A stretch of 64,000 bases of DNA from Styela clava (Eukaryota): NCBI RefSeq assembly GCF_964204865.1, contig NW_027556749.1, positions 1-64,000 of the forward strand, read 5' to 3'. How positions within the stretch are numbered: position 1 is the first letter of the stretch; each line of letters starts with the position of its first letter. Below the pieces are notes generated by a model. The model saw nothing but the letters and a program-made list of their open reading frames with translations, searched no databases and had not been told where the DNA came from. Positions 1 to 47,639 of this stretch are shown here, one piece after another. Both the position numbers and the translations under genes were made by a program.

Positions 1-38
1 CCCTAGGACCCTCAAAATTGCTTGGGATATCCTCGGGC

Positions 39-67
39 TTGACTTTCTCGCGTTCTTGTGATATAAT
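39..67 (+). promoter_or_regulatory. Sigma70-type promoter
   Basis: TTGACT-17 bp-TATAAT with extended TG. Confidence 0.7.
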
Positions 68-119
68 AAAAGGGGGTACCTTTTCACGTTCTCGATCGTT
101 GAGATAAAAAAAAAAGTAC

Positions 120-148
120 TTGACAAAATAAAAATTTTAATATATAAT
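120..148 (+). promoter_or_regulatory. Consensus sigma70-type promoter
   Basis: TTGACA-17 bp-TATAAT. Confidence 0.75.
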
Positions 149-326
149 AAACGGGGAGCCTTTCGCCGGCACAATTCGCACGATTGAACACGTTAAAAAT
201 GGGCTTGCTTTTTCTTCTTTTAATACTAAACCACGTTTAAACTCGTTTAGGCCCTCAAATGGCAATTATTTGAATATTTCAGCGCTACGACTGACACAAT
301 CCGCAAGCTTTCAGATTTCAACAGGC

Positions 327-360
327 AAAAAAAAGACCGGGAACATCTAAGCCCCGGCCC
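327..360 (-). terminator. Intrinsic terminator of the leading minus-strand operon
   Basis: GGGCCGGGGC...GTTCCCGGTC stem followed by T8 on the minus strand, just after 385..693. Confidence 0.8.
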
Positions 361-384
361 TAAATAATATTTATTTATTTATTA

Positions 385-693
385 TTATTTATTATTTGCA
401 CCCTCCTTTTTCATCTTTGCCAAAATCAACCGGATTTTTAAAAATTCAATTTCTTTTTTGGCCTGTAATTCTTTCGCCTCAAAATAATTTAAAAATTTTT
501 TTATAATTTCGATTAAGTCGACCGGCTCCATTTCGAAGCTTGCCAAATTGTTTAAATTATTTATAATTAAATTATTTATAATTTTTTTGGCGTTGTCTGT
601 TTCAAATGTAATTTTTTCGAGATTTTCGAAATCGTTTTTGTTGTCAAGTGTCGAGAAAATGGCCAATAATTTATTTTTTTGCTTTATTTCCAT
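385..693 (-). CDS. Hypothetical protein (102 aa)
   Basis: GGAGG RBS; TAATG coupling to the upstream gene. Confidence 0.8.
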   Translation of the reverse strand: MEIKQKNKLLAIFSTLDNKNDFENLEKITFETDNAKKIINNLIINNLNNLASFEMEPVDLIEIIKKFLNYFEAKELQAKKEIEFLKIRLILAKMKKEGANNK

Positions 694-1382
694 TATTCTG
701 CACCTCCTTCGTCACGTTCGAAATCTTCAAGCATTCGTGCCAAGTTGATTTTATCCGCTAAATCGTTTTGCGTCTCGTCGTCCTGCGTCTTGTTCTCTTC
801 AGATGTTGCGAGGTCGTGGGATTCTTCGCGTATACTTTGCGCGGTAATTCCGCAACTTCTCAAAATTAAATCTTTTCACGTCGCGAAATCTTCAGGCTTC
901 AAGTCTTCGGCTTGAGTGTATCCATTTAACGCGTTCCAAATCTCCCCATCTTCTACCTCGTCGCTGTCGGTGAACAGGTCGCGCGCTCTATCCTCCACAT
1001 CTTCGGTGCAGTAATGTGCCCAATTTAATTTATCATTTAAACCAGTAAAGGAGTTACAAAATTTAATTTGTTCTTTTTTCTCTTCTTCTGCTTCTTTTGC
1101 TTCCTCTTCTTCTTCGGCCTCTCTTTCGTCTTCGTCGTTGTTATTTGGTCAAATAATCACGTATTGCGCCAATTCTACACGGTCCGCGTCGCAGTCTTCA
1201 CGTGCTCCGCTTGTGCATTGGTGGCGGTTATAATTAATTTTTTTTAATAATCGGTTTTTTTCGTCCTTTATGTCTTGATTATCGAAACAGTCCGCCAAAA
1301 AATTATCGATTTTTTTTTTGCTTAAATCCGTACATTTTACGACTTCAAAGCGTCCAAGTCTATTTTTTTTTGTGTGTGTCAT
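693..1382 (-). CDS. Highly acidic protein (229 aa), candidate DNA mimic
   Basis: GGAGG RBS; reads through TGA at 1149; contains NDEDEREAEEEEEAKEAEEE and a D/E-rich C-terminal two-thirds. Confidence 0.8.
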
Positions 1383-1651
1383 TGTGGCACCTCCTCAATA
1401 TTATAATAATAATTAAATATATATTAATTAATTAATGCATTTATCTTTTACGTTTCAATTTAATTATATATTATTATTTTTTTTTTTGTTATTTTTTTTT
1501 TTACTTATTTTTTTTTTAAAATTTTTGCATTATACCACAAACGACAAAAAAGGGGTAAAGTGTTAAAATAATATTATAGAAATTAAAAAATTGATTTTTG
1601 AAAATTTAAAATAAAAATTAAATAAAAAATTGCCAAAAGCTCGCCCAATTA

Positions 1652-1680
1652 ATTTTAACATAGTTTTTTTTTTTTGTCAA
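1652..1680 (-). promoter_or_regulatory. Promoter of the leading minus-strand operon
   Basis: TTGACA-17 bp-TAAAAT with extended TG on the minus strand. Confidence 0.65.
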
Positions 1681-1794
1681 GTTTTTTTTTAAAAATTTTG
1701 AAATTTATTTTTAGACGAAATAAAAAATTTGAAAGAGAAAAAAATTTTTTTATTATTCTCTATGTAAGGACTTATTTTTTTGAAAAGCTTGATT

Positions 1795-2160
1795 ATCTTA
1801 CTGACAGAAAAAAAGGTGATTTTTGCATATGGGACCGTGGGTTAGACTGGAAGAGGTGAATTTTTTTGAGCTAAAACTTTTACAACTTTTCCGGGCTGAA
1901 AAACACGAGTTTTACCTGTCGTAGAACCAATACAGAAAAAAAGTAAAATATTTGCAAACTCTTATGAAAAACAAAAAATATTATACTATTATTACTTATT
2001 TATTTTTTTTTTTAAGCAGTAGTAGAGATAAATTTACTTTTTTAACGAAATGGCTTAAACACTGGGTAAAGTAGACTTTTCGAGGCCGGAAAAGTTATAG
2101 AAATTTTGACTAAAAAAAATTGAGCTAATTTTTAGTAAGATTTAGAACACTCAGTAAGAT
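1795..2160. repeat. Large imperfect palindrome, putative replication origin
   Basis: ATCTTACTGA/TCAGTAAGAT outer pair; arms 1859-1916 and 2065-2122 around an AT-rich core; non-coding. Confidence 0.6.
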
Positions 2161-2278
2161 TTTGACGACTCGCAGGCGTAGAACGACAAAAACACACTGG
2201 CGAAATTTGGAATTTTTTGGAGGTCACAGTAAGGTATCGAATATGATATAATAATAATAGAGAAAAGGAAATAAAAGA

Positions 2279-2371
2279 ATGGAATTACATACATTAAAGA
2301 ATTGTAAAGCAAAAGAACAAAATGCTATTTGCTTATATTGTTTTGTTAAAAAAAATAGAAAGACAAAATAA
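2279..2371 (+). CDS. 30-aa Cys/His peptide (copy 1 only)
   Basis: Follows a TGATATAAT promoter and AAGGA RBS; MELHTLKNCKAKEQNAICLYCFVKKNRKTK. Confidence 0.45.
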   Translation: MELHTLKNCKAKEQNAICLYCFVKKNRKTK

Positions 2372-2413
2372 AAGTATGATATAATAAATATAATAGAAAA
2401 GGAGAAAAGAAAA

Positions 2414-2797
2414 ATGGAAATAGAAAAATACCACAAATTATTAGATGAAAGAAAAGAAAAGATTGGTAAAATATTTGAAAAGATTGGTAAAGAAGCAAAT
2501 AAGTTCAATGATAAAGTAGAATTTACAGGAATTACAATTAACGATTCAAGTGTGTCAAATTCAACATATTACACATTTAATTATCAAAATAAAGAAGACG
2601 ATTGTTTGGAATTGAATTTTAAAGTTAAAGTTTCAGATCATGACAAGCATTTCGGAAATGAATTTAAATTTATTTTTGAAAAATTTACAAGTGAAGAAGA
2701 AAATGAATATTGATTTGAAACATTCGATTTTAATTATTGAAATGATAAAAATTTAATTGCTTGTTTAAAAGAATTTTTGGAAGAAGAATATTATTAA
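2414..2797 (+). CDS. Early hypothetical protein, allele 1 of variable cassette (127 aa)
   Basis: Promoter plus AAGGAG RBS; TGA read-through to TAA. Confidence 0.85.
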
Positions 2798-2815
2798 AAA
2801 AAAAGGAGAAAAATT

Positions 2816-3019
2816 ATGAAAACAGAAACAAAAAACAAAATGTGAGGAAATGATTATCTTTTCTTAGAATGCTCAATTTGAATTAAAGACGAACATTTAA
2901 AAGATATTGATTTTACAAAAGAAATTGGGCCAAATGATGACGACGCAGGCGATGATTATGATATTGACGCCGACGAATATTACCACGACGACAACAATTG
3001 ACCGCGTGAAGATTTTTAA
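2816..3019 (+). CDS. Small acidic protein (67 aa)
   Basis: AAGGAG RBS; tail DDDAGDDYDIDADEYYHDDNNWPREDF; synonymous changes and an in-frame indel between copies. Confidence 0.85.
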
Positions 3020-3036
3020 ATAAAGGAGAAAAAATT

Positions 3037-3486
3037 ATGATTACTACACAAAAAGAAACAGCAAGACAACGTTTTAATGCTATTTTGAATAAAATTGACA
3101 ATTCAGAATATATATATGACATAGATGAAGAAGTTAATTATCTTGATGATATGGGGGCGGGATCACAATTTTATTTTAGAAAGAATTTAAATAAATTGTT
3201 TAAAGAATTAAATTATAAAGATATGGAAGAAACTTATTTTAAAATAATGAGCAAAAACAAAGATTGAGCGCAAATTAAATTATATTTAGATGATGACGTA
3301 AATTTACAAGATGAAAAGATTTTTGACAATTTCAAGAAACAAACATACGATTTTTTTAAACACATCCAACGAATGATTGACGAAATTTTGAAAGATGATT
3401 TGATAAAGTTTAAAGCATATTGTGCGAAAGATATGGAGCGAAGTTTACCCATTATTAAAGGATATTTAAAAAATAATTGAGTATAA
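3037..3486 (+). CDS. Hypothetical protein
   Basis: AAGGAG RBS; code-4 ORF. Confidence 0.8.
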
Positions 3487-3498
3487 AAGGAGAAAATT

Positions 3499-3840
3499 AT
3501 GAAAAAAAATACAATTGATTTAATTTTTAAGTTAGTAGGGATTATTAGCGAAGAAAAAGGTAAAGGGAAAGGTGAAAAAATTTTGGCGAAAAATATTTTG
3601 AAACATTTTGAAAGCGATATTAGTGTTAAATGTTTTAATGATCGTTGAAATTCGTTTAAAGATCGGCGTCGGGAAATTTTAGAAGTAAATTTGAAACAAT
3701 TTAAATTATCTACATTAATATTGATTAAACATAGTTTAATTGGTGAAACTAAAAACAGTTGTAAGATCCAAAAAAACAAAGATATAGTTGTTTATTATAA
3801 TAAATTGTTTTACAAAGGTTGTGATGCCAACCTGGGTTAG
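3499..3840 (+). CDS. Hypothetical protein
   Basis: AAGGAG RBS; code-4 ORF. Confidence 0.75.
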
Positions 3841-4303: not shown

Positions 4304-4597
4304 ATGAAAAATAAATTAGAATATGAAAGTTATTTATCAAACGCAAAATCTTTAATAAGAAATGATAAATTAAGCGTTAAAGATTTGGAAAAATCATTCA
4401 AAGTTGTAAGTAATAATATACTAAAATTAAAAAGTGAAATTTTAAAAAATGTAGTAAAAGGCGAAAGCGTTTGAGTTGATAATCATAATAAAGAAAACTA
4501 TGAAAGTATATTAAAAGCTATCGAGTACTGCCTTTACAATTATAATTTAATTAAAGAAGGAGAAGATAAAGAATATGATGAACAAGAAACTAGTTAA
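4304..4597 (+). CDS. Small paralog-family protein
   Basis: GGAGG RBS; C-terminal KAIEYCLYNYNLIK motif shared with genes at 14218-15974. Confidence 0.8.
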
Positions 4598-5826: not shown

Positions 5827-6724
5827 ATTAGATAAATATTATACAAAACAAAAAATAGCTAATAAGTTAACAACATATATATATGCGGTTTTAAAATATT
5901 ATAAAATTGATTATAACAATTTAACATGAATTGAACCTAGCGCCGGCGAAGGAGTGTTTGTTGACGCTTTAGAACAAGTATTAGACATAAAACCTAAAAT
6001 TCTGTGCTATGATATTGATGAAGATTTAAAGAACAAAAGAGTCATTAAACAAGACTTTTTAAAGGTTAATCTAAAGCATTCGGCGAAAAATATAATTTTT
6101 GGAAATCCACCATTTGGTCGATCTGGACAGTTAGCAATTGACTTTATCAATAAGGCTTCAAAAATTGCTGATATTGTTTGTTTTATAGTACCTAATACTT
6201 TGCGACGATATTCAACTCAAAAAAAATTAAATAACGACCTAAAATTGATTGTAGAATTAACTGTTGATCAAAATGCTTTCGAGTATAAAAACAAAACAAA
6301 AAATTTCAATTGCTCATTTCAAATTTGAGTCAATAAAAATCGAGAAGAATTTAAAGACGGAAAAAATTTGAGATTATTAGAAAAACAACCGTTTCGAGTT
6401 CCTTCTGTAAAGACGTTTATTTACAATAACACAAAAAAGACTGTCAAATTTTTTGATAAGGCTAAATACAAGTGGGACGTGGGTATACCTCGACAAGGTT
6501 TTTGCGACTACTCAAAATTAATTACAGATCAAAAAGAGTTAAAGACAACTCAACAGTATATGTTTATTAAATATAATGATGAGTTAGCAAAAAAAGTTGT
6601 TGAGTTAATAGATTTTGAAGAACTGTCACATAGTAATACAATTGTACCAGGTTTTTCGACAACAGATTTTATAAAAGAATATAATGAGATCAGGAAATTA
6701 CAAGGAGGTCATAATTATGAATAA
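5816..6724 (+). CDS. DNA amino-methyltransferase, probably N6-adenine (gamma motif order)
   Basis: Motif X DKYYT, motif I IEPSAGEG, motif IV GNPPF; joins two track ORFs through TGA. Confidence 0.9.
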
Positions 6725-7262
6725 AACACCCATAATTTGCGTTTTTTTAGGTAATGATTCAAAAGAGTTATCAAATACTAGACATAATATTGGTTGACTT
6801 TTTTGCGATTTTATGGCTTTAATAACGGAAAATACATTTATTGAAAAAAAACATTATTATTACTTTAAAGATTACATTTGTACTGGTATTAGTCCAGTTT
6901 ATTTTATTAAATTGAAAACACTAATGAATGATTCAGGAAAGATTTTGAGAAAAATTTGTCAAAAACAAAAATGAAATTATGATCAATTAATTATTTTTGC
7001 CGATAATACGGATTTAAAACTAACAAAATTTAAAATAAAAAATCATATATGTAATAATGGTCATCGTGGAACACACGACATAGTTGAACAATTCAAAACT
7101 AATAAAATTAAAATGTTTTACTTAGGAATAGATAGACAGAAAAATTTAAAACAATGAGTGTTGTCTCAATTTGAGGATAAAGAAATTTTGTTTTTGAACA
7201 AATATATTTTTCCGAAACTTTGAAATAAATTTGAAGAAAGTTTAAAGTTGAATATGATATAA
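6717..7262 (+). CDS. pth: Peptidyl-tRNA hydrolase
   Basis: FLGN...NTRHNIGW, KTLMNDSG, ADNTDL, NGHRG, YLGID and WVLSQF match Pth1 motifs. Confidence 0.88.
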
Positions 7263-7634: not shown

Positions 7635-7841
7635 ATGAAAACATATAAAATTTGAATGAAAGATAAAAAAGAGTTGGATAAATTGGAAAGTATACTATGA
7701 GATTTAAAAATTGAATATGATGCTAGAACTAGTATTGAAAGTACAATATTATCACCAAAAGGGGACAAAGACAATACTATTTGAGATAAAAAAGGTTTTT
7801 ATGTAACAATTAAAACGTTTGAAAAAGGAGGAAAAGAATAA
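7635..7841 (+). CDS. Hypothetical protein
   Basis: AAGGAG RBS; TAATG coupling. Confidence 0.7.
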
Positions 7842-8596
7842 TGAATAATTTTTCGGATGGAAATGGAAAATATAAAAAAATATCTAGTGACGAATTAAAA
7901 CAATTAGAAAAAAAAATGGAAAATACACTTATTAGTGCTGTTGAAAAAATGAATTGCGGTGTGGTTTATTGTGATTGAATGAGATGGGATGAGTCACCAC
8001 ATGAACCTTTGAGAGGTCGTTTTGTCGTCACTATTGAGTCTATGGGTCATAGATTTGACTTTGTAAACTTTAATATTCATATTTTAGAAAAAAAACCTAG
8101 ACGATGATATCATTTAGAAGATAGTGATAATGACAAAATCGAAGTTTATTTAATACTTGAGGATTTTGAAAAATTAGATGATTATCTTGAAGAATTTAAA
8201 AAAACTATTAGAAAAGAAATGCGTTCAATTATACGAGCTAAAAATTGAAACCAATTGTATAGTTATAATTTTGAAAATATTCGTATTAAAAAAGTTTGAG
8301 AAATTGGAAAAAAATATTTTGGTGATAATGATTTGACAAATACTTACCTCGAAGGTAAAGTTTCACGTCGCGCTTTCAACAAATATCGAAAAGCACTTAT
8401 TAAAATAGTAAACACAAGACTTTCAAATTGAAAAAAAGGCGATGACCCTAAAATATTTATTGGCGTATATGCTATTTTAGATTGAGAAAAAGAAAACGTT
8501 GAAAAAATAAAGACAATTAATAGAATTAGAAAAGAAATTGCTAATCAAAAATTTACGAAAAAAAGAGGATCGTATAAATATAAAGGAGAAGAATAA
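7841..8596 (+). CDS. Hypothetical protein
   Basis: GGAGG RBS; code-4 ORF; TAATG coupling. Confidence 0.8.
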
Positions 8597-11461: not shown

Positions 11462-11840
11462 AAATAATAAAGAAAATAATGATTTAGGGGTATATAGTGA
11501 TGATATTGATATTATGTTAGAAGTTGCCAATGAAGTATTTTGTAGAACAGTATCGTTAAGTTGAAGTACATGACAAAAAGTTCATGGTTATCAGAGTGCT
11601 ACCTTAGTAAAACATTCATCAAAAATGAATACGTCTAAATTGTTAAATACTCGACGAACTATTTTGACATGTAAAGCAATTTGATCACTATCGAAAAATA
11701 TTTTAAAATTGGAAGATAATGATAAAAATAGAATAAAATGTTATAGAGAAGGGTTACGTTTTTATGTTACAGTGTGACCACCTACTATGTCATGATATCG
11801 AGAATTTAAAGGATTTTTAAAGAAATGAAAAAAAAAATAG
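11454..11840 (+). CDS. Hypothetical protein
   Basis: AAGGAG RBS; code-4 ORF. Confidence 0.7.
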
Positions 11841-12367
11841 ATATATTATATAATAAGTATGTTGAAACAAAAGACAAAAAAATTCTAAATAGAATCAAAT
11901 ATGAGATGATGGATATAGCAAAAAAAACATGTAAAGTTGTTTCACATATAAAAACAAAAGGTTATAGTGATCCAAAAACAATGTACAGTTTCTGTTTTGA
12001 ACGGTTTGATAAAATAATAAACGATTATGAACCTACACATAAAACAACGTTGAGTACATATACTGCTATTTGTCTTTGAAATTATTTAAGAAGTAGACAA
12101 TATCATAAAAGTTTAGACATTACAAAATCTAGAATTTATACAACACGATCATTAGATACTTTTAATAATGACAAATTAAAGTTAGATTTAAAGAGTATTT
12201 TAGGCGATACTTTTGATTATAAATTAATATGTGACTATATTGGACTCAATGGAAAGAAATTAAAAAATAAAGAATTAGCTAAAATATATAATAAACCTTT
12301 AGGTTCTATAAAAACAAGACTACGAACTATTGAAAAGGAACTTAGAAAATATTTTAAAAATAATTAA
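11825..12367 (+). CDS. Sigma-70 family RNA polymerase sigma factor (180 aa)
   Basis: Region 2-like FDKIINDYEPTHKTTLSTYTAICLWNYLR; region 4 HTH KNKELAKIYNKPLGSIKTRLRTIEKELR. Confidence 0.82.
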
Positions 12368-12402
12368 ATCTTTTTTAGTGTTTTTGTACATATATATATA
12401 TG
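12354..12402 (+). promoter_or_regulatory. 49-bp element, putative phage-sigma promoter for the tRNA array
   Basis: Perfect inverted copy at 46113-46161, upstream of the late operon. Confidence 0.7.
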
Positions 12403-12609
12403 GAGGGTCTCAAAAAACCTCTAGTCCTAAATACATAAAATTTAAGAGTAACAAACTCCGCCTTGTTACTAAATTAACTTTTTGACTTTAAACTGTTAGA
12501 CACGGGTGCGTCTTTAACCACACTACAGTTTGAAAAGGTACTATAACCTTTTAGTCAAGTCGTGACTTAAACCGACTTAACTACCTCTGTTAACGCGGAG
12601 GTGGTTTTT
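12403..12609 (+). ncRNA. Structured leader RNA ending in a terminator-like hairpin
   Basis: Several stems including a 3-way junction; AACTACCTCTGT/GCGGAGGTGGTT plus T run directly before tRNA-Ala. Confidence 0.55.
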
Positions 12610-12685
12610 GGGCCTGTAGCTCAATAGGGAGAGCATTTGGTTTGCAATCAAAAGGCAGTCAGTTCGAATCTGGCCAGGTCCACCA
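12610..12685 (+). tRNA. tRNA-Ala(UGC)
   Basis: Cloverleaf, G3:U70, encoded CCA. Confidence 0.95.
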
Positions 12686-12689
12686 TAAT

Positions 12690-12766
12690 AGAGTGTTAGC
12701 TCAGCAAGTAAGAGCGCCTGTATTACAAGCAGGAGGTCAGTGGTTCAAGCCCACTACACTCTACCA
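12690..12766 (+). tRNA. tRNA-Val(UAC)
   Basis: Cloverleaf, loop AT-TAC-AA, CCA. Confidence 0.93.
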
Positions 12767-12772
12767 TTTTTT

Positions 12773-12849
12773 GCTGGTTTAGCTTAATTTGGCAAAGCAC
12801 CCGTCTTGTAAACGGACGAGTAAAGGTTCGAGGCCTTTAACCAGCACCA
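12773..12849 (+). tRNA. tRNA-Thr(UGU)
   Basis: Cloverleaf, loop CT-TGT-AA, CCA. Confidence 0.93.
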
Positions 12850-12852
12850 TAT

Positions 12853-12928
12853 AGAGCTATAGCTTAGTGGTTACAGCGCACGCCCTATAAGCGTGAGATC
12901 TTGGGTTCGATCCCCAATAGCTCTACCA
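12853..12928 (+). tRNA. tRNA-Ile(UAU)
   Basis: Stem CACGC/GCGTG, loop CC-TAT-AA, CCA. Confidence 0.9.
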
Positions 12929-12931
12929 TTT

Positions 12932-13007
12932 GGATCTGTGGTGTAATGGATAACATGCCTCTCTGTCTAAGAGAAGATAGCGAGTTCGATTCTCGTCAGG
13001 TCCGCCA
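12932..13007 (+). tRNA. tRNA-Asp(GUC)
   Basis: Loop CT-GTC-TA, G73, CCA. Confidence 0.92.
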
Positions 13008-13008
13008 C

Positions 13009-13094
13009 GGAGGAGTAGCGAAGTGGTTAAACGCGTCTGACTGTAAATCAGATTCTTTTTAGATACGGGAGTTCGAATCTCTTTTCCTCCACCA
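13009..13094 (+). tRNA. tRNA-Tyr(GUA)
   Basis: Loop CT-GTA-AA, long variable arm, CCA. Confidence 0.94.
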
Positions 13095-13098
13095 TTAT

Positions 13099-13174
13099 CG
13101 GAAAGTAGCTTAGATGGAAAAGCACTCGGTTTGGGTCCGAGAGATCATAGGTTCAAATCCTCTCTTTCCGACCA
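13099..13174 (+). tRNA. tRNA-Pro(UGG)
   Basis: C1:G72, loop TT-TGG-GT, CCA. Confidence 0.94.
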
Positions 13175-13178
13175 TTTT

Positions 13179-13269
13179 GGAGCGATACCCAAGCTGGTTT
13201 AAGGGGACTCATTGCTAATGAGTTAGGTTAGTTTCTGACGCATGGGTTCGAATCCCATTTGCTCCGCCA
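13179..13269 (+). tRNA. tRNA-Ser(GCU)
   Basis: Loop TT-GCT-AA, long variable arm, G73, CCA. Confidence 0.94.
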
Positions 13270-13270
13270 C

Positions 13271-13347
13271 GCCCGATTAGCTCAGTTGGTTAGAGCGATT
13301 GCCCGTTAAGCAAGAGGTCACAAGTTCGAATCCTGTATTGGGCGCCA
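13271..13347 (+). tRNA. tRNA-Asn(GUU)
   Basis: Loop CC-GTT-AA, G73, CCA. Confidence 0.92.
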
Positions 13348-13348
13348 C

Positions 13349-13424
13349 GCCTTGTTAACTCAAACGGTAGAGTAGTTGCCTTTTAAGCAAACGGTTAAAG
13401 GTTCGAGTCCTTTACGAGGCACCA
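13349..13424 (+). tRNA. tRNA-Lys(UUU)
   Basis: Loop CT-TTT-AA, CCA. Confidence 0.93.
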
Positions 13425-13429
13425 TTTTT

Positions 13430-13506
13430 GCCCACGTAGCTCAATTGATCAGAGTAAGGGTGTTCTAAGCCCTAGGTTGAAGGTTTGAATCCTTCCGTGG
13501 GTACCA
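13430..13506 (+). tRNA. tRNA-Arg(UCU)
   Basis: Loop GT-TCT-AA, CCA. Confidence 0.92.
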
Positions 13507-13516
13507 TTTTATTTAT

Positions 13517-13635
13517 CTGGTCCAAAAATCCAAGGACCAGCTCTACAGACTCAAGGCTAGTCAAAGGTAGCACTATATTAGTGTAAGCCTAGTTTGCCAC
13601 CACTGTCTCTACAGACCATTTTGACATGTGGTAAA
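13517..13635 (+). ncRNA. Unassigned structured RNA inside the tRNA array
   Basis: Several stems, a possible pseudoknot and a 10-nt direct repeat CTCTACAGAC. Confidence 0.45.
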
Positions 13636-13641
13636 CGTTTC

Positions 13642-13715
13642 GCAGATGTAGTTTAGTGGTAGAACCTCAGATTTCCAATCTGATTGCGGGAGTTCAATTC
13701 TCCCCATCTGCTCCA
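13642..13715 (+). tRNA. tRNA-Gly(UCC)
   Basis: Loop TT-TCC-AA, U73, CCA. Confidence 0.94.
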
Positions 13716-14541: not shown

Positions 14542-14856
14542 ATGTTATATAGAATAGAAAAATATGATATGATTCATAGAGATTGAGCAAAACACGCAAC
14601 ATCACAAATATATAATGATTATGTTAAATATTGTGAAATATTAATAGAAAAAGATGACTTACAATTAGAAGATCTTAAAGAATCATTAGATTTAGTTAAA
14701 TACTCTATATTGAATTTGACAGAAACAATTTTAAAATGTATAAAAGAAGGGCAATCAATTATGCCACACAACAGTCTTTTAGAACATAAAATTGAAATTA
14801 AAACAGCTTTAGAATATTGTATTAAAAATTTTAATAATATTAAGGAGGTTTGATAA
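14542..14856 (+). CDS. Small paralog-family protein
   Basis: AGGAG RBS; TALEYCIKNFNNIK. Confidence 0.8.
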
Positions 14857-14858
14857 TA

Positions 14859-15062
14859 ATGTTGACAGATGCGCAAGCTAAAGAAGACATGAAGTTTTTA
14901 ACAGAAAAAGGAAAAGTGGAGTTACTCACCATTAAACATTGAGTAGAAGAAAAAGATTTTAAGTTAAAAAAATTGTTACAATTATCACTTAGAGTTGAAG
15001 AAACAAATAAAGCAATAAAATATTGTATTAAAAATTATAATAAAATAAAGGAGAAAAAATAA
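14859..15062 (+). CDS. Small paralog-family protein
   Basis: GGAGG RBS; KAIKYCIKNYNKIK. Confidence 0.75.
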
Positions 15063-15715
15063 TGAAAACAACAAATGAAAAATTAATAGGAACTATAATG
15101 ACATTACTAATAGAAGAAGATGGGCTAAGTTGAACTAAACAGTTAACAGACAAACAAATTGATTTAATCAAAAAATATATACCACAATATGATCCAAAAA
15201 AAATATACAAACAATTTGATACTTTTGTATATAAAGATGTAGTTTGTGTTGTAGAAACATATGATCTAGGTTATATGTGAGCGTATCCTTTACTAAAGAA
15301 TAGCGCTGAAAAATATAGTAGCGCAGGTGATGGAACATTAATTAAACTTTATGATGAGTATGATTCAACATTACCAAAACCTTTTAACAAACTAGATGCT
15401 AATTTAAATTTGGAATATATGAATTCGATTTATAACTGAATTGGAGATGGCGCACCTGAATCTTTAAAATTTAAATATATTAACACAAAAAAAACATTTA
15501 AAAAGTTAGATACTATACATGAAAGTCATAAAATTTTAGGTGTGGCATTTAGTAAAGTAATCGACGTTTATTTGAAACCAATTTTAGAACGTATTGAAAA
15601 ACTTGAAAAAAAAGTAGAAGATTTACCAACACGTGCCGTAATTGGAGACTGCTTATATCCAATAGGTAAACGTATTGAAAAACTCGAAGACAAGGTTAAG
15701 AATAATGACAAATAA
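15062..15715 (+). CDS. Stand-alone copy of the giant fibre's repeat domain A plus coiled coil (217 aa)
   Basis: WTKQLTDKQIDLI...YPLLKN...LPKPFNKLDANLNLEYMNSIYNWI aligns with repeats in 34950..43406. Confidence 0.85.
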
Positions 15716-15974
15716 TGATATATATAAAAAATTTATCAAACATGTTTCAGTATTAGTGATAAATAATTTAATTAATTTAGAAAATTTAAAAGATATGTTG
15801 ACTATAACAAAAAATGAAATATTAGAACGTTCAGAAGAAATTATTAAAAAGATGTACCGCAGAGAATGAGGAGAAATAACTTTCAACGAAGAAATACAAT
15901 TAGAATGTATTATGATTAAAAAAGCATTGGAACATTGTATCAAAAATTTCGATAAAATCAAAGGAGAAAAATAA
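15705..15974 (+). CDS. Small paralog-family protein
   Basis: KALEHCIKNFDKIK. Confidence 0.8.
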
Positions 15975-16342
15975 TGATTAGAGATTGAGAATGAGAATAT
16001 AGCGAAAGAGAAAAATATTTAGAAAAAAATAGAAGATTTGTATTATCAAGTAATGATAGATTTTATAATAGTAACGATGAATCAGATTATAGAATTATAG
16101 AAGACTTGATAATATATGAAATATATAATAAACATATGACTATTAAAGATCTTAAAAAATTATTTTATGAATATAGCACGCGAGAGTTTGAAGAAAAAAG
16201 AAACCATTTTAAAAAATTTCAAATTACATCATTAGAAAGTGTACGACAAATAGGTATAATTACTCGACATTGTGAAGCTATGAAGAATTTATTAAGTTTT
16301 CATATTATTAAACAAGAAGAAAAAAAGGAGAAAAAAGAATAA
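15974..16342 (+). CDS. Hypothetical protein (possible divergent family member)
   Basis: AAGGAG RBS; TAATG coupling. Confidence 0.75.
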
Positions 16343-34949: not shown

Positions 34950-37900
34950 CTAATGTCCGCTCTCTCTTCTAACTGATAAGTTAAATTTTGTTGGGAAGAC
35001 CAAATTATAATTACCATTAGCGTTAAATGTTCATTTTATATCGTTTAAAGCAACATTATTTCTCATATGGTAGTAAACGTAAAATGGATGACGATAAACG
35101 TCGTTATTTGTTAATCATCATATATCTCCTCAATATAATAAGTCGCCAGTTGCTTTTGTTCATTTAATATTCCCTTTAATATTAACACCTGTTTTTGTTG
35201 CGAAATAGTGGTTGTAAAGATTTGCGTTCAATTGTCATGGACTCGCTGATTTTAACGTTGAGTGAAAATATGTTTTTGTTGTTGATGAGGTTGCGTTGTA
35301 ATTGTCAGTGGTTACTAAATATTGAAAAGTTTTGTTTGTTGTGTCGCCAGTTTGTTTTGGTACTAAAAATGAATGTCATCTAACATTAGACGTATTAAGA
35401 GGCGGTTCGATATGAATATCAAAAGAATACAATCCATCTTTAAATTCTTTAGAATTACCAGTATTTAAGGTAACAAAAAACGAGTTACTAAAGTATTTTA
35501 ATTGGGATCCTACTCTGTCAATGATTGGAAAACTTGTTTTTTTTCCAACTCCAGCGAAGTAAGTGTTAGCTTCAATGTTGTTTGATGAATCCATTTTTGT
35601 AATTGTTGAACCAGTACCTATAACGTCTACTCATGGGTGAGGCGTATGTAACATTTCAAGACGGCTACGTGCTGTGTCAAATATTTCGGTGCTACCTAGA
35701 TCTTTAAATTCGTCATCGGTTATATCATCATTACCAATATTTTCAATTAGTTTTTGACCTTCCACTTTTGCTTCATATTGTGTAATTAAATATCTGAATT
35801 GTGATTCTGTAAGACCGTGTGCTTCAGAATATTGTTTAGGTGAGTTTTCACCAACTGTTGAATCATAATCATCTGTTCTTTTACTTCATTGTAAGTCAAC
35901 ATTTGCTAAAACAGTTTCTATTTCCGATACACTAATAGGTTTATAATAACCGTAAGAAGCATATAATTGACTTCTAGAATTGACATGAGTTATTCGTTCT
36001 AATATAGTTTTTGTGTCTTTATAATTTAATCCAGAAATGTATGTTTCAACTTTTTCGAATGGAAGATACTTATAAATTTTTAAATGTTCGCTATCACGAA
36101 AAAAATATGAGGTATCTATTTTATAAAGTCGTGATGAGTAAGTGACAGGTGCTTTTAATATGTTAATCAATTTATCTTTTTGTGAACCTGTCGGTCTATC
36201 GGTTCATCTTAAACCTGTAGGGTTATTATCCTCATCAAAAGGTTCCATTTCTTGATCAACAATTTTTGTTTCTAGAGGGGCCAATCGATTTTCTAATAAT
36301 ATATCTACTTGATGCTTTGTATAATTAGCTCCAATTAGAGAAAAGAAATTCTTGAAATAATCATAACCATCAATTCCAAAAAATTTTCCTTTTTGATTAG
36401 TGAAAACTGGTATTGAAGGAAAGTTTGATCTTGATGGGTCTAGATAAGTGAAACGATTTTCTCATGATTGAGCAATTTCGTCTTGTGGGTCGGGATTTGA
36501 AATAACGTGATTTTGATAATCTTCAACAAAAGAATACACAGAATTAACATACTTTATGCTAAGATTAGCACCATCAGTATTAAAAGGTTCTTCTACGAAT
36601 TGACCGTGGGATCCAATTAAGTCTGAGCTTCCATCTTTGCTAAATTTTATAACAGCATAATTTCTTAGTAAATTAATACAGTATAAACTAGGATCAACAA
36701 TATTAGCAATAATATATAATTCATCATCTTGAACAAACAAGTCATAAACCTTGTATGTATCAAACTTAGTCATGTCAAGATCAGGTACTTCGGCTCTTAT
36801 GAAGTCAATTTGGTCGTCTCTCAACTGTTCATTTCAACCATGAAAAGATTCAATTGACGCGTTATTAACAGCTTTCACGCTTAGAGATTTGTCAGCTAAT
36901 AAGTCATAAAATTCATCTTCTGTTAAATGATTCAATAATGAATATTTTTCAGGAGTACTTGCTATGTTTAGTACGTTAGTTGCCCGAGTTGTGTCAACGT
37001 CTCTAAATTCTTTATAAATTTTTCCTAAATCAGATCTTTTTACATGAATAATATGACTTAATACACTAGTAGTTCCATCTTTTCTTATGTAATTACTTAA
37101 TGTATAGTTAGAACCACATAGATTATTAATTCAAGTCAATAAAGCAAAATGTTTTTGATAATCTGTTAAATCATTTCAATCAGTAGGTCCTCTGTAATAT
37201 TGTCAAATATCACGAATTACACAACTTTCTTCTTTGAAATTACAAATTTGGTAAATATCAACTTTGTCATTTATATCAAGAGAAAGAGGTTGCGAAATTA
37301 TATTACTTCCATATCCTTCTTGAACAAGACTATAATATTCAGCTTCTGTATTTAAAACAGTAACTAAAGTTTGAAGCTTCTCAGTAGTTGGAACAGTTGT
37401 TCAAGGAATAGTGTCTCTGTTTAATATTAAATCTTCTGTTCTGAGTATTCCATTAAATTTTGCGTCGATTTGAGGTTTGTTATATGTATCTGCTATTTTA
37501 GCATATAATTTGTGGTTAATTTCATCTGGTAAATTAGTAAGGGCTTTAAATTCTCTAAGAAGATTGAAAAATTCAGTTTGAGATAGACTGTTATAAGCAG
37601 AATAAAATTTAGGAGCACTAGCTCATACATTTGGACTACTAGTACTTTTATAATATCGTCCACTATCAATCAATTTTTGAATATCCCCAGTTCTTCAATA
37701 AATAGGTTGAACATCATTATCATAACTTGTTCCTAAAATGTCATTTATTCTATAAATTCTTTTTAGTACAGTAGATAATTCATCTAAAACATCATGTTTA
37801 ATACCATCTTTAGTAAAAGGTACTCGTTTATCTATATAATCATCATAAGCTATTATATAAGCTGTTTTGTGATTATTTTGACTATGATTACCATATCAAT

Positions 37901-40900
37901 GATCTGGTTCACTTAAAACCGCTAATAATTTTTCACGTTGAGATGCTGTAGGTACTTCTTCTCATTTCAATCCTGTAGGATTTGTATTAACATCATAAGG
38001 TAATAATTCAATATTAGTTACCTCAGTTTCTAATTCTGATAAACGATTATTTAACTGAGCGTCTATTTGTTGACGAGTATATATAGTATCTTTTGTAGCA
38101 AAAAAATTTTTAAGATACTTAAATCCATTAATACCAAACATTTTTCCTTTTAAATTTGTAAATACGGGCATTGTTGGAAAATTTGAAGCTTCTGGTACAT
38201 TATAATTAAAACGATTATTTCAAGTACTTGTATCATAGTTATCATCTTGATCTGGGTTTGAAATAACATGATTGTAACCATCTTCCAAAAAAGAATAAGT
38301 TGAGTTAACATAATTTAGACTTAAATTAGCATTGTTTTCATTGAAAGGTGCTTCAATTGTTGTAACATAAGTATTTCCTGTAACAGCTCGAATATCACCA
38401 ACAGTAAATTTTAAAGGAGCAGTATTACGTAATAAATTTAAAGCTATAATACCTGCTTGTGTCGCATATTTATAAGAAACAATATAAAGGCTATCGTTAT
38501 AATCAAATAAGTCATAAATTTTATATTCATTTAATTTGTTTTCGTCATAGAAGGAAACTTCTCCACGAATAAGATCAATCTGTTCATTTGTAAATGGAGC
38601 ATTTCAATCTTCAAATGACTCGATTGTAGTATGTGATTTTATATCTGTTTTTAAAGCAAAAAACTTTTTTAAATAACTATACGCTTTAACACCAAAAATC
38701 TTCCCCTTTCTGTTTGTAAATACTGGTAGTGTAGGATAGTTTGAATATTCTGGTGTTATATATTTTAATCTAGTTTCTCAATCGCCAAATACTGATCCAC
38801 CTGGTATTGGGGTAGAAATAGCCTGATTATCGTGGTCTTCAATTCAACTGTAAATTGAGTTTATATATTTTAAGTTTAAGTTTGCCAGCTCAGTATCATA
38901 AGGACCCATAATTGCTTTTACGTGATCTCCTTGAATAGCTATTAACTCTGCAGTTTTATTAAATATTCTAACAGCTTGGTTTCTTAACAAATTAATAGCA
39001 AATATATTTTCATTATTTAAAAGACGAGCACAAACGAAAACCTGATCACCAAAAGTAAATAAATCTAATACTTTGTAATCATCAAATTTGGCTCAATCAA
39101 AAGCATGAATATCTTCTTTAATAATATCAATTTGTTCGTCTGTCAATTGTGTTTCTCAATCAATAAAAGAATCCATTGACACTTTAGTTAAGTTTTCAAT
39201 TTTCCCTCTAAGTAAGTTATAAAAATCTTCTTGTTGTAAATGATTTTTTTCGCTATAAAGTTTTGGTGTTTTAACAATACCCTCTTCTTCGGCTACATCA
39301 CTATCATTATCTGTTTCAAAATGTTTGAAAAGCAAAGCTAGATCTGAACGTTTTATATGTACGATGTGACTTAACTCTTCAACTTCGCCATTTGGTTTTG
39401 TGTAATTACTTAATACATAAGTTGAACTACATATATCATTAATTCAAGCTAATAAAGTTGCTCGTTTTTGATACTCAGTCAAATCGTCTCAATCACCAGG
39501 TCCTTTGTAGAGACTTCATGCGTCTTTAATAGCATAAGTTTTTTCGCCAAAGTTAACGATTTTATAGATATTTATTTTGTCGCCAACATTTAAACTCAAA
39601 GGTTGTGTTGCGTAGTCACCTCCATACCCTTCTTCTTCTAAAGCATAATAAGTTTCAGGAATTTTAAGAGTTGATAATAAGGCTGTTTTTTGAGCTTCAC
39701 TTGGTGTTTTTTCTCAACCTAATGTTAGTTCTGACAATAAAGGATTTGTAGTTCTAAAAATAGAATCAATTTTTGTATCAATTTGAGGTCTAGTATATGT
39801 GTCTTTTTTTGTAGCATAAACGGTTTCGCCTGTTTCGATTTGGTGTAATTTAGCAAAAGAATCATTTAAAAAACCTAGAGCATTTACACCATATATAGTA
39901 CCATCTTCAGTAGTGAAAATAGGAAATGTTGGTAAATGACCTTCTAAGAATGTAAATCTTTTATTATAACTTTCAACAATATCTTCAGGTGTTGAGTGAG
40001 AAATTGGATGCGTTTTAACATATTTAATTCAAGATAAAATAGAACTAATGTATTGTAAATTTAAATTTGCGCCTCTTGTATTATAAGGACTTGGTAAAGT
40101 ATCGTCATATGGAATAATACGTACTTTATTACCATTTCTTCTAATTTCAAAAGGTGATAAATTTTTTAATAATGGAGCAATAATTCAGTCTACATTATCT
40201 GGTGTTTTACTAACAAAAATATATACTTCACCATCATAAAAAATTTTATCAAAAAGTTTATAGTCACTATATTTAGTAGAATCATAATTTTTAACATTTC
40301 TAGCAATATCATCAAGTTGAGAGTCGGTTAGTTGTTGCTTCCATCCTGCAAAAGAATCTAATGCAACATCAACACTACTAGATTTTACCATATTATCAAC
40401 ACGTGTGATAATTGTGTTTTTAACAAAATGATTATAAAACTGCTCTTTTGTATAACCATATTCGTCAGATCATTTTTGTGGTGTGCTGAAATTAGACTCA
40501 AATGAATAAACTGGTGGTTGTTGTGAATTTATAAAATATTCATAAAGTTTTCCTAAATCGCTTCTTCTAATAGGATTAATATGATCTAATTTTGTAACAC
40601 TACCTCCAATATGTTCAAAGTCACTTCTTTTATAACTAGATCCACATCTTCTATTTACAAATTTTAAAGCTTCATCGTGTTTTTGATCTTCAGTTAAGTC
40701 ATCTCAATCTGAAGGAAATTCAACAGTATCTTTTTTTCATAAACTTCAAATATCTTGAATAAAAGTTTGTGGTATACCAAAGTTATTAAATTTATAAAGA
40801 TAAACTTTTTCTTCTGTACGGAGCGTTAAAGGATTATGAGCTCAATCACTTGATCATTTTCCAACGTTTAATCCATAAAAGGTTTCGGGGACTTTAAAAA

Positions 40901-43406
40901 CGTCAGCTAAAACTGCTCGTTGGTCGTCTAATGGTACTGATGTTCAAGGTAAAGTAGTTTCGTTTAAAAGTAAATCATCTAATCGTAATAAACCTTCAAG
41001 TTTACTATCAATTTCTGCTTTATTATATGTATCTCTTTTATAAGCAAACGTTATATTATTATGTAAAATAGAATGTATAGTGTTAAGCCCTGAATCTGAA
41101 TATAACAATTGTTTAACATCACCATTAACTTGTTTCAAATACATTTTACCATCTTTTTCAAAATAATAAAGTGAATCCAAAAATGTTGATGTTCTGTCGT
41201 CTGATGCTAAACTTTCAATTAAAGGATGATGTAAAACTGTGCTATGATTATCAGCACCTTTTATTGTTGGATCTATTAATGCTATTCCAGTGTCAGGAGC
41301 ACCTGTTTCAAAACCAACAATTGTATGACCCGCTGTATAAAAAGGAACAAATCCATGTTCTGTATCTTCGCCATTATAAACACTTGTAAGTAAGTCAATG
41401 AAAAAATTTTCGCCCGAAGTATCAACAGTTGGCGCGTGTTTTTTAACGTACTCAAGAGCTAAAGCAGTTTCTTTAACTGTCAAAATACCTTTAGTTCCAT
41501 TTAGTTCGTCGGGATGTAATGTACTTGTATGTCTTCAAACTTGACGTTTATATTTGTTTATAAGATAAGTATAAGTACTATCTTTAGCAAATGTAATATA
41601 AATTTCACCACTATAATAAACTAAATCATTTACTTTTAAGTTACTTAATGAATTAACATCAGTATCATCATAAATTACAGAAATTAGTTTATCTAATTCA
41701 ATCAACTCAGCAACTTGACTGTGTGATACATGATTTTCAATTTTAAAAACGTCAGTCTGTGATGGACTTATTTCATCTTTTTTTACAAAAATACTTGATA
41801 AGTACTTAGTAGCATTAATACCTATAATAGTGTTACCTTTTCCATTAATAAATACTGGTAACATTGGTGTATTACTATCAAGAAATGAAAATCTAGAATT
41901 ATAATCTAATTGTGTTCCTTGATTAGTTGGGTCTGAAATTGGGTGATCATATATATCTTTAATTCATGTTAAAATAGAATTAGTATAATGTAAATTTAAA
42001 TTAGCGTTATTTACGTTGTAAGGGCTAGGTATACTAGAATTATAATCAAGTAATTGACCATTAAAATTAGCTCCTTGTTTTACAATCGTAATAACTGGTT
42101 TATTTCTATATAGTGGAACAACTGTCAATTGTGATGTCGATACATTTGTAACAACATAAGTATCACTACCATAAATAAATTGGTCAAATACTTTATATAT
42201 ATCAAATTTAGTTAAGTCGAATGTATCAGTTGATGTTTGAAGATGTTCAATTTGTTCATCTGTATATTGAGCTTCTCAGTCACCAAAAGATTCTATATAA
42301 CTTTGTTGAGACGAAATTTCTGGTATTTCGTGAGTAGGATGTTCTAGATTTTCATCTAATAGATTAGTACTTTTTAAATACTCAGTTATTAATCTATTCA
42401 TGTCAGCTAATCCAACTTTCTCATTTCAAGCACGAACAAATTCTATGTAAGTGATTGGTCGTAATTCGAAGTTAGACAACCCTTCTATAATTTCACTATC
42501 TTGGTCGTTTACATTAAAAGGTGTCGTACAATTTTGCCCTATGGGATCTATTAATGTAGCTTTTTTAACTAATCCTGCAGCCACTAATAAATTAACAACT
42601 TCTTTTGGTAAATAACCAATAGGTCATGAGTTGGCTACATTTTCAGAAAGTCCATTAACAGATTCAGAAACTTGGCGCCCTTCAAAATTGATTCCGTGTT
42701 GAATATAATAAGCAGATAACAATACTAAAGCTTTACGTAAAAACTTAACTTTGTCTTTAGTAGTATGACTTAATAAAGTAACATAAGATGTAATTTTACC
42801 TTCTGTTACAGCGTCAATACGTTCATAAGCATTATAAATAATACGTTCGTATTGTTCAGTTTTATATTTTCTATTAATTAATGCTTCAACATCTCTAGCA
42901 TATATATAAGGTGCCGACTCGGCTCTTGAATCGTTTAAACTTTTCTTATATAAAATAATATTACTACTAGAAATCAAACTATCAATTATTAATTTAATAT
43001 CACTATTTTCTTTATTATACTCAATATTAAAATTTGCTATTGACTTTAATTCGTTATCAATATCACGTCGTGTAACTATAGTACTAAAATCATTATTGTT
43101 AGCTCTCTTTATAAAAGGATAAACATTTTCATAATTAATAACCCTTTCATAATAAGTTTTCCTTAAATTTAATCATTGTAAAAAATCATTAAAATTTGTA
43201 GGTGCTATAAGGTCATCAGTAAAAAGTGCTATAGAAGTGTTATAATTTAAAGTATATGTATTAATAGTTGATATTTCATTAGTTACTTGTATTAATAATT
43301 CAGTTAAAGTTTTGTTTTCACTGTTATTTATAATACTTGACTTGAAAGTTTCAATATTGTCAAAAATAGAGTTATATTTAGTTTGAAATTCTAGTAATGT
43401 TGTCAT
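34950..43406 (-). CDS. Giant repeat fibre with N-terminal head-tail-adaptor-like domain, ~2818 aa
   Basis: Nine track ORFs in one frame; alternating A/B repeats; AYERIDAVT...LRKALV...LLVAAGL segment. Confidence 0.8.
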
Positions 43407-46027: not shown

Positions 46028-46112
46028 AAATTTCTCCTATTATATAATAAGAAGGGATCTTAAAGTTGATGACGATAAGGAGGTACTAGTCGAAATAAAC
46101 TTTATACCCCTT

Positions 46113-46161
46113 CATATATATATATGTACAAAAACACTAAAAAAGATTTAATTATTTTTAA
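46113..46161 (-). promoter_or_regulatory. 49-bp element, putative late promoter
   Basis: Exact reverse complement of 12354-12402; points into the virion operon. Confidence 0.72.
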
Positions 46162-46641
46162 TTATTTTGAATTATTTTTAAAAACATCGAGTTTTACGTC
46201 TGAGAGCGCGAGAATAAAAAATCTTACTATAAGTTGAGGCTGTGACAAATTGAGTTACCCTAGGACCCTAAAAAAAGCTTGGGATATCCTCGGGCTTGAC
46301 TTTCTCGCGTTCTTGTGATATAATAAAAGGGGGTACCTTTTCACGTTCTCGATCGTTGAGATAAAAAAAAAAGTACTTGACAAAATAAAAATTTTAATAT
46401 ATAATAAACGGGGAGCCTTTCGCCGGCACAATTCGCACGATTGAACACGTTAAAAATGGGCTTGCTTTTTCTTCTTTTAATACTAAACCACGTTTAAACT
46501 CGTTTAGGCCCTCAAATGGCAATTATTTGAATATTTCAGCGCTACGACTGACACAATCCGCAAGCTTTCAGATTTCAACAGGCAAAAAAAAGACCGGGAA
46601 CATCTAAGCCCCGGCCCTAAATAATATTTATTTATTTATTA

Positions 46642-46950
46642 TTATTTATTATTTGCACCCTCCTTTTTCATCTTTGCCAAAATCAACCGGATTTTTAAAA
46701 ATTCAATTTCTTTTTTGGCCTGTAATTCTTTCGCCTCAAAATAATTTAAAAATTTTTTTATAATTTCGATTAAGTCGACCGGCTCCATTTCGAAGCTTGC
46801 CAAATTGTTTAAATTATTTATAATTAAATTATTTATAATTTTTTTGGCGTTGTCTGTTTCAAATGTAATTTTTTCGAGATTTTCGAAATCGTTTTTGTTG
46901 TCAAGTGTCGAGAAAATGGCCAATAATTTATTTTTTTGCTTTATTTCCAT
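46642..46950 (-). CDS. Hypothetical protein (copy 2)
   Basis: Same as 385..693. Confidence 0.8.
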   Translation of the reverse strand: MEIKQKNKLLAIFSTLDNKNDFENLEKITFETDNAKKIINNLIINNLNNLASFEMEPVDLIEIIKKFLNYFEAKELQAKKEIEFLKIRLILAKMKKEGANNK

Positions 46951-47639
46951 TATTCTGCACCTCCTTCGTCACGTTCGAAATCTTCAAGCATTCGTGCCAA
47001 GTTGATTTTATCCGCTAAATCGTTTTGCGTCTCGTCGTCCTGCGTCTTGTTCTCTTCAGATGTTGCGAGGTCGTGGGATTCTTCGCGTATACTTTGCGCG
47101 GTAATTCCGCAACTTCTCAAAATTAAATCTTTTCACGTCGCGAAATCTTCAGGCTTCAAGTCTTCGGCTTGAGTGTATCCATTTAACGCGTTCCAAATCT
47201 CCCCATCTTCTACCTCGTCGCTGTCGGTGAACAGGTCGCGCGCTCTATCCTCCACATCTTCGGTGCAGTAATGTGCCCAATTTAATTTATCATTTAAACC
47301 AGTAAAGGAGTTACAAAATTTAATTTGTTCTTTTTTCTCTTCTTCTGCTTCTTTTGCTTCCTCTTCTTCTTCGGCCTCTCTTTCGTCTTCGTCGTTGTTA
47401 TTTGGTCAAATAATCACGTATTGCGCCAATTCTACACGGTCCGCGTCGCAGTCTTCACGTGCTCCGCTTGTGCATTGGTGGCGGTTATAATTAATTTTTT
47501 TTAATAATCGGTTTTTTTCGTCCTTTATGTCTTGATTATCGAAACAGTCCGCCAAAAAATTATCGATTTTTTTTTTGCTTAAATCCGTACATTTTACGAC
47601 TTCAAAGCGTCCAAGTCTATTTTTTTTTGTGTGTGTCAT
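46950..47639 (-). CDS. Highly acidic protein (copy 2)
   Basis: Same as 693..1382. Confidence 0.8.

Follow-up and report, generated by a model that had tools for sequence, protein, structure and literature searches.

A stand-alone gene for a predicted virion-appendage module in a code-4 tailed phage, and its possible role as a decoy

Main finding

A stand-alone gene located at 15062-15715 on the forward strand, which encodes 217 aa under genetic code 4, was found to be homologous to the A repeats of a 2818-aa predicted neck appendage whose gene lies approximately 20 kb away on the opposite strand. The preliminary description of this DNA had proposed a soluble fibre mimic encoded among non-structural genes, a proposal that was supported to the extent that the non-structural arm of the phage encodes a conserved paralogue of a virion-appendage module, predicted to be soluble. 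As a mini-fibre derived from the swappable module of the appendage, the free protein has, in our estimate, about an even chance of competing for the partner of that module, either a host sensor or a receptor; as a binding module without anchor or shaft, borne on a cassette and present once per genome, it is best fitted by the role of a competitor. The more specific reading, in which a soluble trimer acts as a decoy and diverts a host factor able to recognise this module, is offered tentatively. All of the evidence was obtained from one assembly and the sequencing runs of one study, and any function is suggested on that basis.

Genetic code and organization of the phage unit

The window, that is, the whole stretch of 64,000 nucleotides that was analysed, belongs to a contig of phage DNA within a 377-Mb eukaryote assembly, and contains 1.4 copies of a tandem unit of about 46.3 kb. 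Genetic code 4 was needed to read the window as a whole, and the ORF at 15062-15715 is intact only with TGA read as Trp: translation table 4 yields 217 aa with three TGA codons, and table 11 yields fragments. The gene recurs, identical, at 61406-62059 (+) in the next tandem unit. No bacterial rpoB was found in the assembly, from which the bacterial host is absent; the genetic code alone suggests a mollicute (mycoplasma-like) host.

The forward strand carries the non-structural genes (dTMP kinase, ligase-like, sigma-like, 12 tRNAs, thymidine kinase, DNA polymerase, and primase), and the reverse strand carries the terminase and virion genes. A 54-bp element at 12354-12407 (+), located directly after the sigma-like gene at 11825-12367 (sigma-70 matches weak), heads the tRNA-to-replication arm, to which the stand-alone gene belongs, and its near-identical twin at 46108-46161 (-) precedes the virion operon. 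A related phage of the same assembly, C216, has its own 27-bp variant of the element at both corresponding places. The element is a candidate promoter for the phage sigma factor; a scan for sigma-70 promoters returned nothing informative.

Homology of the stand-alone gene

The gene is preceded by an AAGGAG ribosome-binding site at 15048-15053 (+), and its ATG overlaps the TAA of the upstream gene. When its A core (residues 24-129; 15131-15448, +) was compared with the 2818-aa ORF using BLASTP, five matches were obtained with 34-39% identity and E-values of 2e-16 to 6e-15. With the stand-alone genes left out, a profile made from 17 appendage A units gave the gene a score of 92 bits (E 9e-27), compared with at most 7.5 bits among 1000 shuffled sequences and -2.1 for the reversed sequence. 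Within the phage unit it was the sole match outside the 2818-aa protein. The gene had been described as a copy of the fibre repeat, and homology was confirmed for all five A repeats. The refuting outcomes named beforehand did not occur: the alignment is significant, and the gene is intact in relatives. In the 19-row A alignment, 13 columns are invariant and the stand-alone gene conforms in all of them.

The copy is partial. The profile match spans positions 10-119 of 202, and of the A unit of about 190 residues only the first 110 or so are significantly matched, the second half being lost or unrecognisable; the view that the repeat domain had been copied was narrowed to this first part. The repeat that had been quoted for comparison, from about 40350 to 40030, was identified as A2 (40343-40020), with one letter to be corrected (SPYNTRGA, not SPYKTRGA).

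On either side of the stand-alone gene lie small genes, paralogous to one another and alike in their C-termini (4304-4597, 14542-14856, 14850-15062, and 15705-15974). Their ends form DNA repeats (81-82%) at 14794-14847, 15000-15065, and 15918-15977, which could provide a route for gain or loss of a cassette.

The parent appendage protein

The 2818-aa protein (34950-43406, -) is arranged in the order adaptor, A1, X, B1, A2, B2, A3, A4, C1, B3, A5, C2, and C-terminal domain. The A cores, all on the reverse strand and located by BLASTP, are A1 (41955-42278), A2 (40020-40343), A3 (38835-39158), A4 (38277-38606, followed by a neck with RLSELE), and A5 (36519-36836, followed by a neck with RLAPLE). 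Residues 172-280 (42567-42893, -) match the head-tail adaptor family phrog_541 (E 1.5e-4, profile positions 8-122 of 129); the match is weak but in the expected place, at the N-terminus of a protein encoded in the head module. Because of this N-terminal domain the protein was designated a predicted neck appendage and not a classic tail fibre, and the earlier label "fibre" is to be taken as an interpretation.

In the phi29-like phage C120, the gene for the A-bearing protein has that of the upper collar connector on one side and that of the tail protein on the other; a collagen stretch occurs in the A-bearing proteins of both C120 and the small element C221. Collagen requires three chains. Taken together, the adaptor match, the gene position in C120, and the collagen stretches point to a trimeric neck appendage as the probable parent. 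The phrog_541 adaptor would anchor the appendages of the large phages, and a phi29-type collar module (phrog_2038 and phrog_2248) flanks that of C120. What distinguishes the protein from the phrog_541 family is the fusion of the adaptor to about 2500 repeat residues, for which no family match was found.

A degenerate A-like hairpin was seen in the X region (appendage residues ~580-625). The tail protein of the C98 phage (C98:44359-49335) carries a C-type repeat, which is otherwise an appendage feature. The appendage frame is divided into two ORFs in one copy of C318 and in C271, through either an error or a real break.

Relatives and distribution in the assembly

The informative relatives all lie within the same assembly. 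Three types of large phage were distinguished, namely that of the window, C216 (terminase 98% identical), and C98 (32%). Every large-phage unit that was read whole, in all three types, has exactly one free A gene. Of 26 contigs on which a large-phage terminase was found, 21 carry such a gene; the remaining five are short, and the genes that flank it are missing from them too. The version in C216 and C98 (197/198 aa) is contained in a 1.39-kb block that is 99.1% identical at the nucleotide level and is common to these two phages, whose terminases are 32% identical. It is located upstream of the position of the window's sigma-like gene, and the window's version lies 7 kb further on. In C216 the free gene is bounded on both sides by a 21-nt RBS/stop/start repeat, and comparison with the C216-type phage identified an empty site with a single repeat at 7823-7843 (+) in the window. 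The window's phage thus carries one version and lacks the other. The stand-alone genes occupy mobile accessory cassettes at two different sites.

The two versions are 44% identical in the core and have in common a two-residue deletion that is present in none of the 17 appendage units. They join in the tree of A units with support of 83/76 and 88/84 (unstarred, on long branches). The tree is unrooted and gives no direction of capture. Exchange between free and appendage copies had been suggested as something that trees might detect, and no appendage repeat grouped with the stand-alone genes.

The A module is common to all five phage types in the assembly. The small elements C221 and C120, which were read whole, each have one A unit in the appendage and no free copy, and the same was found for C317 and C271, the completeness of which is uncertain. 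C221 is a tandem unit of 11,866 bp with terminase, portal-like, tail-like, and collagen-bearing appendage genes; no replication gene was found among its ORFs of at least 60 aa, and it is regarded as a satellite-like element. C120, C317, and C271 are phi29-like code-4 phages (upper collar connector, tail protein) with B, A, and C repeats in the appendage, and C317 and C271 have a C-terminal tip domain in common with the large phages.

The window's gene was recovered without differences in two runs from two samples of one study, although one run may be the source of the assembly. In a second study, run X5 yielded only two pieces of 130-150 nt downstream of the gene, at depth 2, and run X6 nothing useful. 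The C216-type gene has a coverage hole in run X2 that is filled in X4 of the same sample.

Outside searches

No relatives outside the assembly were found in a search of 5.8 billion proteins (near lengths only) or in IMG/VR, JGI metagenomes, GTDB genomes, or GenBank phages. A profile search of 1.84 billion representatives gave three matches. P0001 is a partial appendage of the same family, and P0002 (CBM5/12-collagen protein repeats) aligned weakly over 32 columns with a probability of 25%; none of the 19 A members matched PF02839 (CBM5/12). P0003, a saposin repeat, was rejected as a chance match. Gene callers that use table 11 would break these genes, and blank database searches are therefore weak evidence. 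The shared appendage module has no family or fold match, the core alone having been barely tested.

What the free copy keeps

Between the window and C216, pN was 0.22 and 0.19 in the A2 and A3 cores, 0.08 in their tails, and 0.05-0.07 in the B repeats; in comparisons of C98 with C340 or C57, the A3 core reached 0.24 and its tail 0.07. Alternation between alleles was seen in the A2 and A3 cores, with pN of about 0.2 where swapped, 0.01-0.06 where unswapped, and near 0.07 in the tails. A4, C1, and C2 are variable too, and A1 and A5 are not. The free gene corresponds to this swappable half and contains neither the adaptor nor the conserved A tail; no free copies of the B, C, X, tip, or adaptor domains were found.

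The window's gene keeps 18 of the 19 near-invariant appendage columns and 10 of the 57 variable ones, and the other version 16 and 14, respectively. Between the two versions pN is 0.37 and pS 0.61; with pN below pS and the frame intact, the stand-alone gene appears to be under purifying selection.

These data bear on the suggestion that the gene is a donor of DNA for shuffling of the appendage, or else a decaying duplicate. Strains do exchange appendage A cores, but the best DNA match of the free gene is 52 nt at 81% with a longest exact word of 14 nt, unlike silent donor cassettes for fibre variation, in which high DNA identity to the expressed gene, or else machinery for inversion or of retroelement type, would be expected. 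No appendage repeat resembles the free gene, and its intact frame, pN below pS, and conserved scaffold columns speak against decay. Both forms of this explanation are largely refuted and are considered very improbable.

It is unlikely, on present evidence, that the gene has taken on a new intracellular job, in which the A core would be a generic binding module that split off early and whose target is unrelated to the ligand of the appendage. The stand-alone pair forms its own branch, with the support given above, and has its private deletion. Fifteen core positions are alike in both free versions and unlike the appendage majority, and the core net charge is -2 and +6 in the free versions, compared with -13 to +1 in appendage repeats. 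The free copy is 34-39% identical to the repeats of its own phage and 35-42% to foreign ones. Core charge, distinct positions, and the lack of any nearness to a cognate repeat count against both a decoy and receptor masking, and together keep the new-job reading alive; the trimer motif described below, at a similar distance after the core, suggests instead a retained appendage-like layout, even though the profile of the appendage necks was unmatched.

Fold, coiled coil, and localization

The alignment-based model consists of a helix, five beta strands, and a helix in residues 21-140 (pLDDT about 80-93), followed by a disordered linker and two helices; the single-sequence structure model had a pLDDT of 36. 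Comparison of the alignment-based model with PDB and BFVD using Foldseek gave no match at E of 0.001 or less for the full model, the core having been barely tested alone. The VIA rows were taken up by the C-terminal helices, with Tudor domains at best Z 2.0-2.3. VP9 of Banna virus, matched at E 1.1, was treated as a chance match.

The C-terminal helices (residues 159-213; 15536-15700, +) carry two RIEKLE motifs at 15590-15607 and 15671-15688 (+), starting at residues 177 and 204; the duplicated RIEKLE coiled coil reported earlier was thereby recovered. These motifs are of the R-h-x-x-h-E type, which occurs twice in the window's version and once in the other, within a heptad helix. The two in the window are a duplication and thus not independent. 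The background was three matches in 10,713 aa of 41 other ORFs, and the shuffle P was 0.0002 for two matches and 0.018 for one. According to the portion of PMC3653964 that was available, R-h-x-x-h-E favours parallel trimers without guaranteeing them, and some dimers carry the motif too. The stand-alone protein is accordingly only predicted, from its sequence, to be trimeric. The motif is also present after A4, A5, and (with Phe) the single A of the small phages, at a similar distance. A profile of eight appendage necks did not match the tail of the free gene, so homology of the coiled coils is unsupported.

No signal peptide, lipobox, or membrane helix was detected in either version. The KD19 maximum was 1.2 and 0.5 in the two versions, compared with 2.3 in a control membrane protein; the N-terminal maximum was 0.6 and -0.5, and the first Cys is at residues 62 and 79. 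The protein is predicted to be cytoplasmic, and the earlier suggestion of classical superinfection exclusion at the cell surface was weakened.

A further role, as an add-on to the virion, would have the protein form a small trimeric spike that gives the particle one more binding specificity. The core with its trimer motif does resemble one segment of the appendage, but no anchor is conserved (an N-terminal helix, residues 4-20, is present in the window's version and absent from the other) and the gene is on the non-structural strand. We regard this role as distinctly improbable.

An intracellular decoy and its alternatives

In the mechanism proposed, the free paralogue of the allele-swapped A core would stay in the cytoplasm and trimerise, and would soak up a host factor that recognises the A module; with that factor occupied, the real appendage could be built. 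A decoy was among the roles that the preliminary description had offered. This supposes that the stand-alone gene would be expressed in the infected cell, that A cores may be recognised by a host factor, either a sensor or an inhibitor of assembly, and that the free copy could bind this factor without triggering it. The decoy was ranked first because the protein has no route to the surface before lysis and the module is present in all five phage types; a module so distributed would be a good target for a host factor that reads the fold. In its favour, the part retained coincides with the portion of the A unit exchanged among strains. The conserved fold columns, the lack of export features, the cassette setting, the presence of the gene in 21 of the 26 large-phage contigs, and the precedents of DSAD1 and Tai also count for it. 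Against it, the free copy is no nearer to the repeats of its own phage than to foreign ones, unlike an allele-specific decoy, and small A-bearing phages have no such gene. In addition, one candidate promoter sequence precedes both the virion operon and, in the window, the stand-alone gene, with a hairpin and U-run between it and the latter, so the protein may not precede the appendage. A change of host range explains the allele swapping of A cores no less well than does evasion of a sensor.

A host-range role of the cores is the starting point of a rather unlikely alternative that ranks close behind the decoy, masking of the receptor. The trimer would bind the surface molecule used by the appendage A cores and be released at lysis, so that receptors on debris and neighbouring cells are coated and progeny are spared or competing A-bearing phages shut out. 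The A cores behave like host-range modules in their allele swaps, and the trimer motif would give avidity. The version of the free gene co-varies with the A2/A4 alleles and not with the core genome, C216 and C98 agreeing in both and the window differing; this co-variation comprises two states only, and C216 and C98 have other early genes in common. The window's gene follows the twin of the virion-operon element, but the free gene of C216 is upstream of the sigma gene. Masking is further opposed by the lack of an export signal, which leaves the outer face of the cell out of reach before lysis, by the lack of a cognate allele matched by the free copy, and by A3 alleles that change while the free gene stays 99.8-100% identical. 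A precedent is the free fibre of adenovirus, which in the text available of PMC2793518 masks receptors.

Comparison with known systems

For the decoy, the closest comparison is DSAD1. In the part of PMC10973363 that was available, this monomeric protein, built of eight strands and one helix, is a mimic of the tail tube protein and occupies the tail-tube pocket of DSR2. As may be the case here, a small phage protein substitutes for a virion protein in binding a host factor, and the feature of a small soluble protein outside the structural operon is present (217 aa, opposite strand). DSAD1 is not described in that text as a paralogue of its virion counterpart, whereas the stand-alone gene is a true paralogue of the appendage repeats with a predicted trimeric product. 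DSAD1 was not among the matches listed in the fold and profile searches, in which the structure aligner hardly probed the core.

Tai systems target a fibre, and counter-defences exist, among them Ati, which binds Tai (PMC11364771, text available in part). Likenesses are a conflict over a fibre protein in assembly, accessory hot spots, and, in the present assembly, a satellite-like element; the difference is that Ati is not reported, in the text available, as a copy of a fibre. Neither of the two stand-alone proteins matched PADLOC at E 0.1 (2023 library). The free fibre of adenovirus resembles the protein here in being related to an attachment protein, soluble, and potentially able to occupy receptors, but adenovirus overproduces the fibre itself, while here there is a separate, diverged bacteriophage gene and no export route (PMC2793518, from the same portion). 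Within the available text of these sources, none of DSAD1, Tai/Ati, and adenovirus fibre is a case of an appendage module with a paralogous gene of its own. The phage mimics of virion proteins known so far seem to resemble their models without common descent. A T4 Imm preprint (10.64898/2026.03.06.709160), which in the portion available concerns tape-measure binding, was set aside.

The literature search (most subscription papers lay outside it) found no description of a phage gene that is a free-standing fibre-module paralogue, and nothing relevant on these code-4 phages.

T5 Llp and Cor are receptor-blocking lipoproteins unrelated to the receptor-binding protein. The outcome proposed by the masking alternative is like theirs; the stand-alone protein differs in having no lipobox and in being related to the appendage.

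Tail fibre assembly chaperones are usually encoded beside the fibre gene. A role in assembly, in which the protein would chaperone or cap the appendage of its own phage or poison those of competitors by co-trimerising with them, would accord with the confinement of the gene to phages with four to five A repeats, with the resemblance of the trimer motif to the appendage necks, and with the occurrence, in the same assembly, of A modules in phi29-like phages and in a satellite-like element. However, the stand-alone gene is not beside the appendage gene but at two different, unlinked accessory sites, the conserved A tail is lost, and the small phages build A without a free gene. No chaperone family in Pfam, PHROG, or NCBIfam was matched by the stand-alone protein, and the poison variant would endanger the phage's own appendage. 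The chaperone or cap that had been suggested earlier was weakened by these findings, and an assembly role of either kind is judged improbable.

If the decoy reading is correct, the mimic would have been made by copying the virion module itself. A free copy that is small and foldable offers a ready bait for the receptor or sensor, and the work opens an unstudied group united by one appendage module: code-4 tailed phages, a satellite-like element, and phi29-like phages.

Other features of the phage unit

The 12 tRNA genes are clustered at 12610-13715 and include a tRNA-Ile with anticodon TAT; a stable hairpin with a U-run is located 5' of the cluster at approximately 12572-12610 (z -4.4). A phage-encoded peptidyl-tRNA hydrolase (6684-7262; TIGR00447, above the NCBIfam cut-off) adjoins a methyltransferase-like gene. 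The start of unit 1 (1-3500), compared with 46258-49100, differs from the next tandem unit and has a 96% match to the C216-type phage; it is either a recombinant or an assembly chimera. An imperfect palindrome of 263 bp is present at 1859-2121 and 48115-48377.
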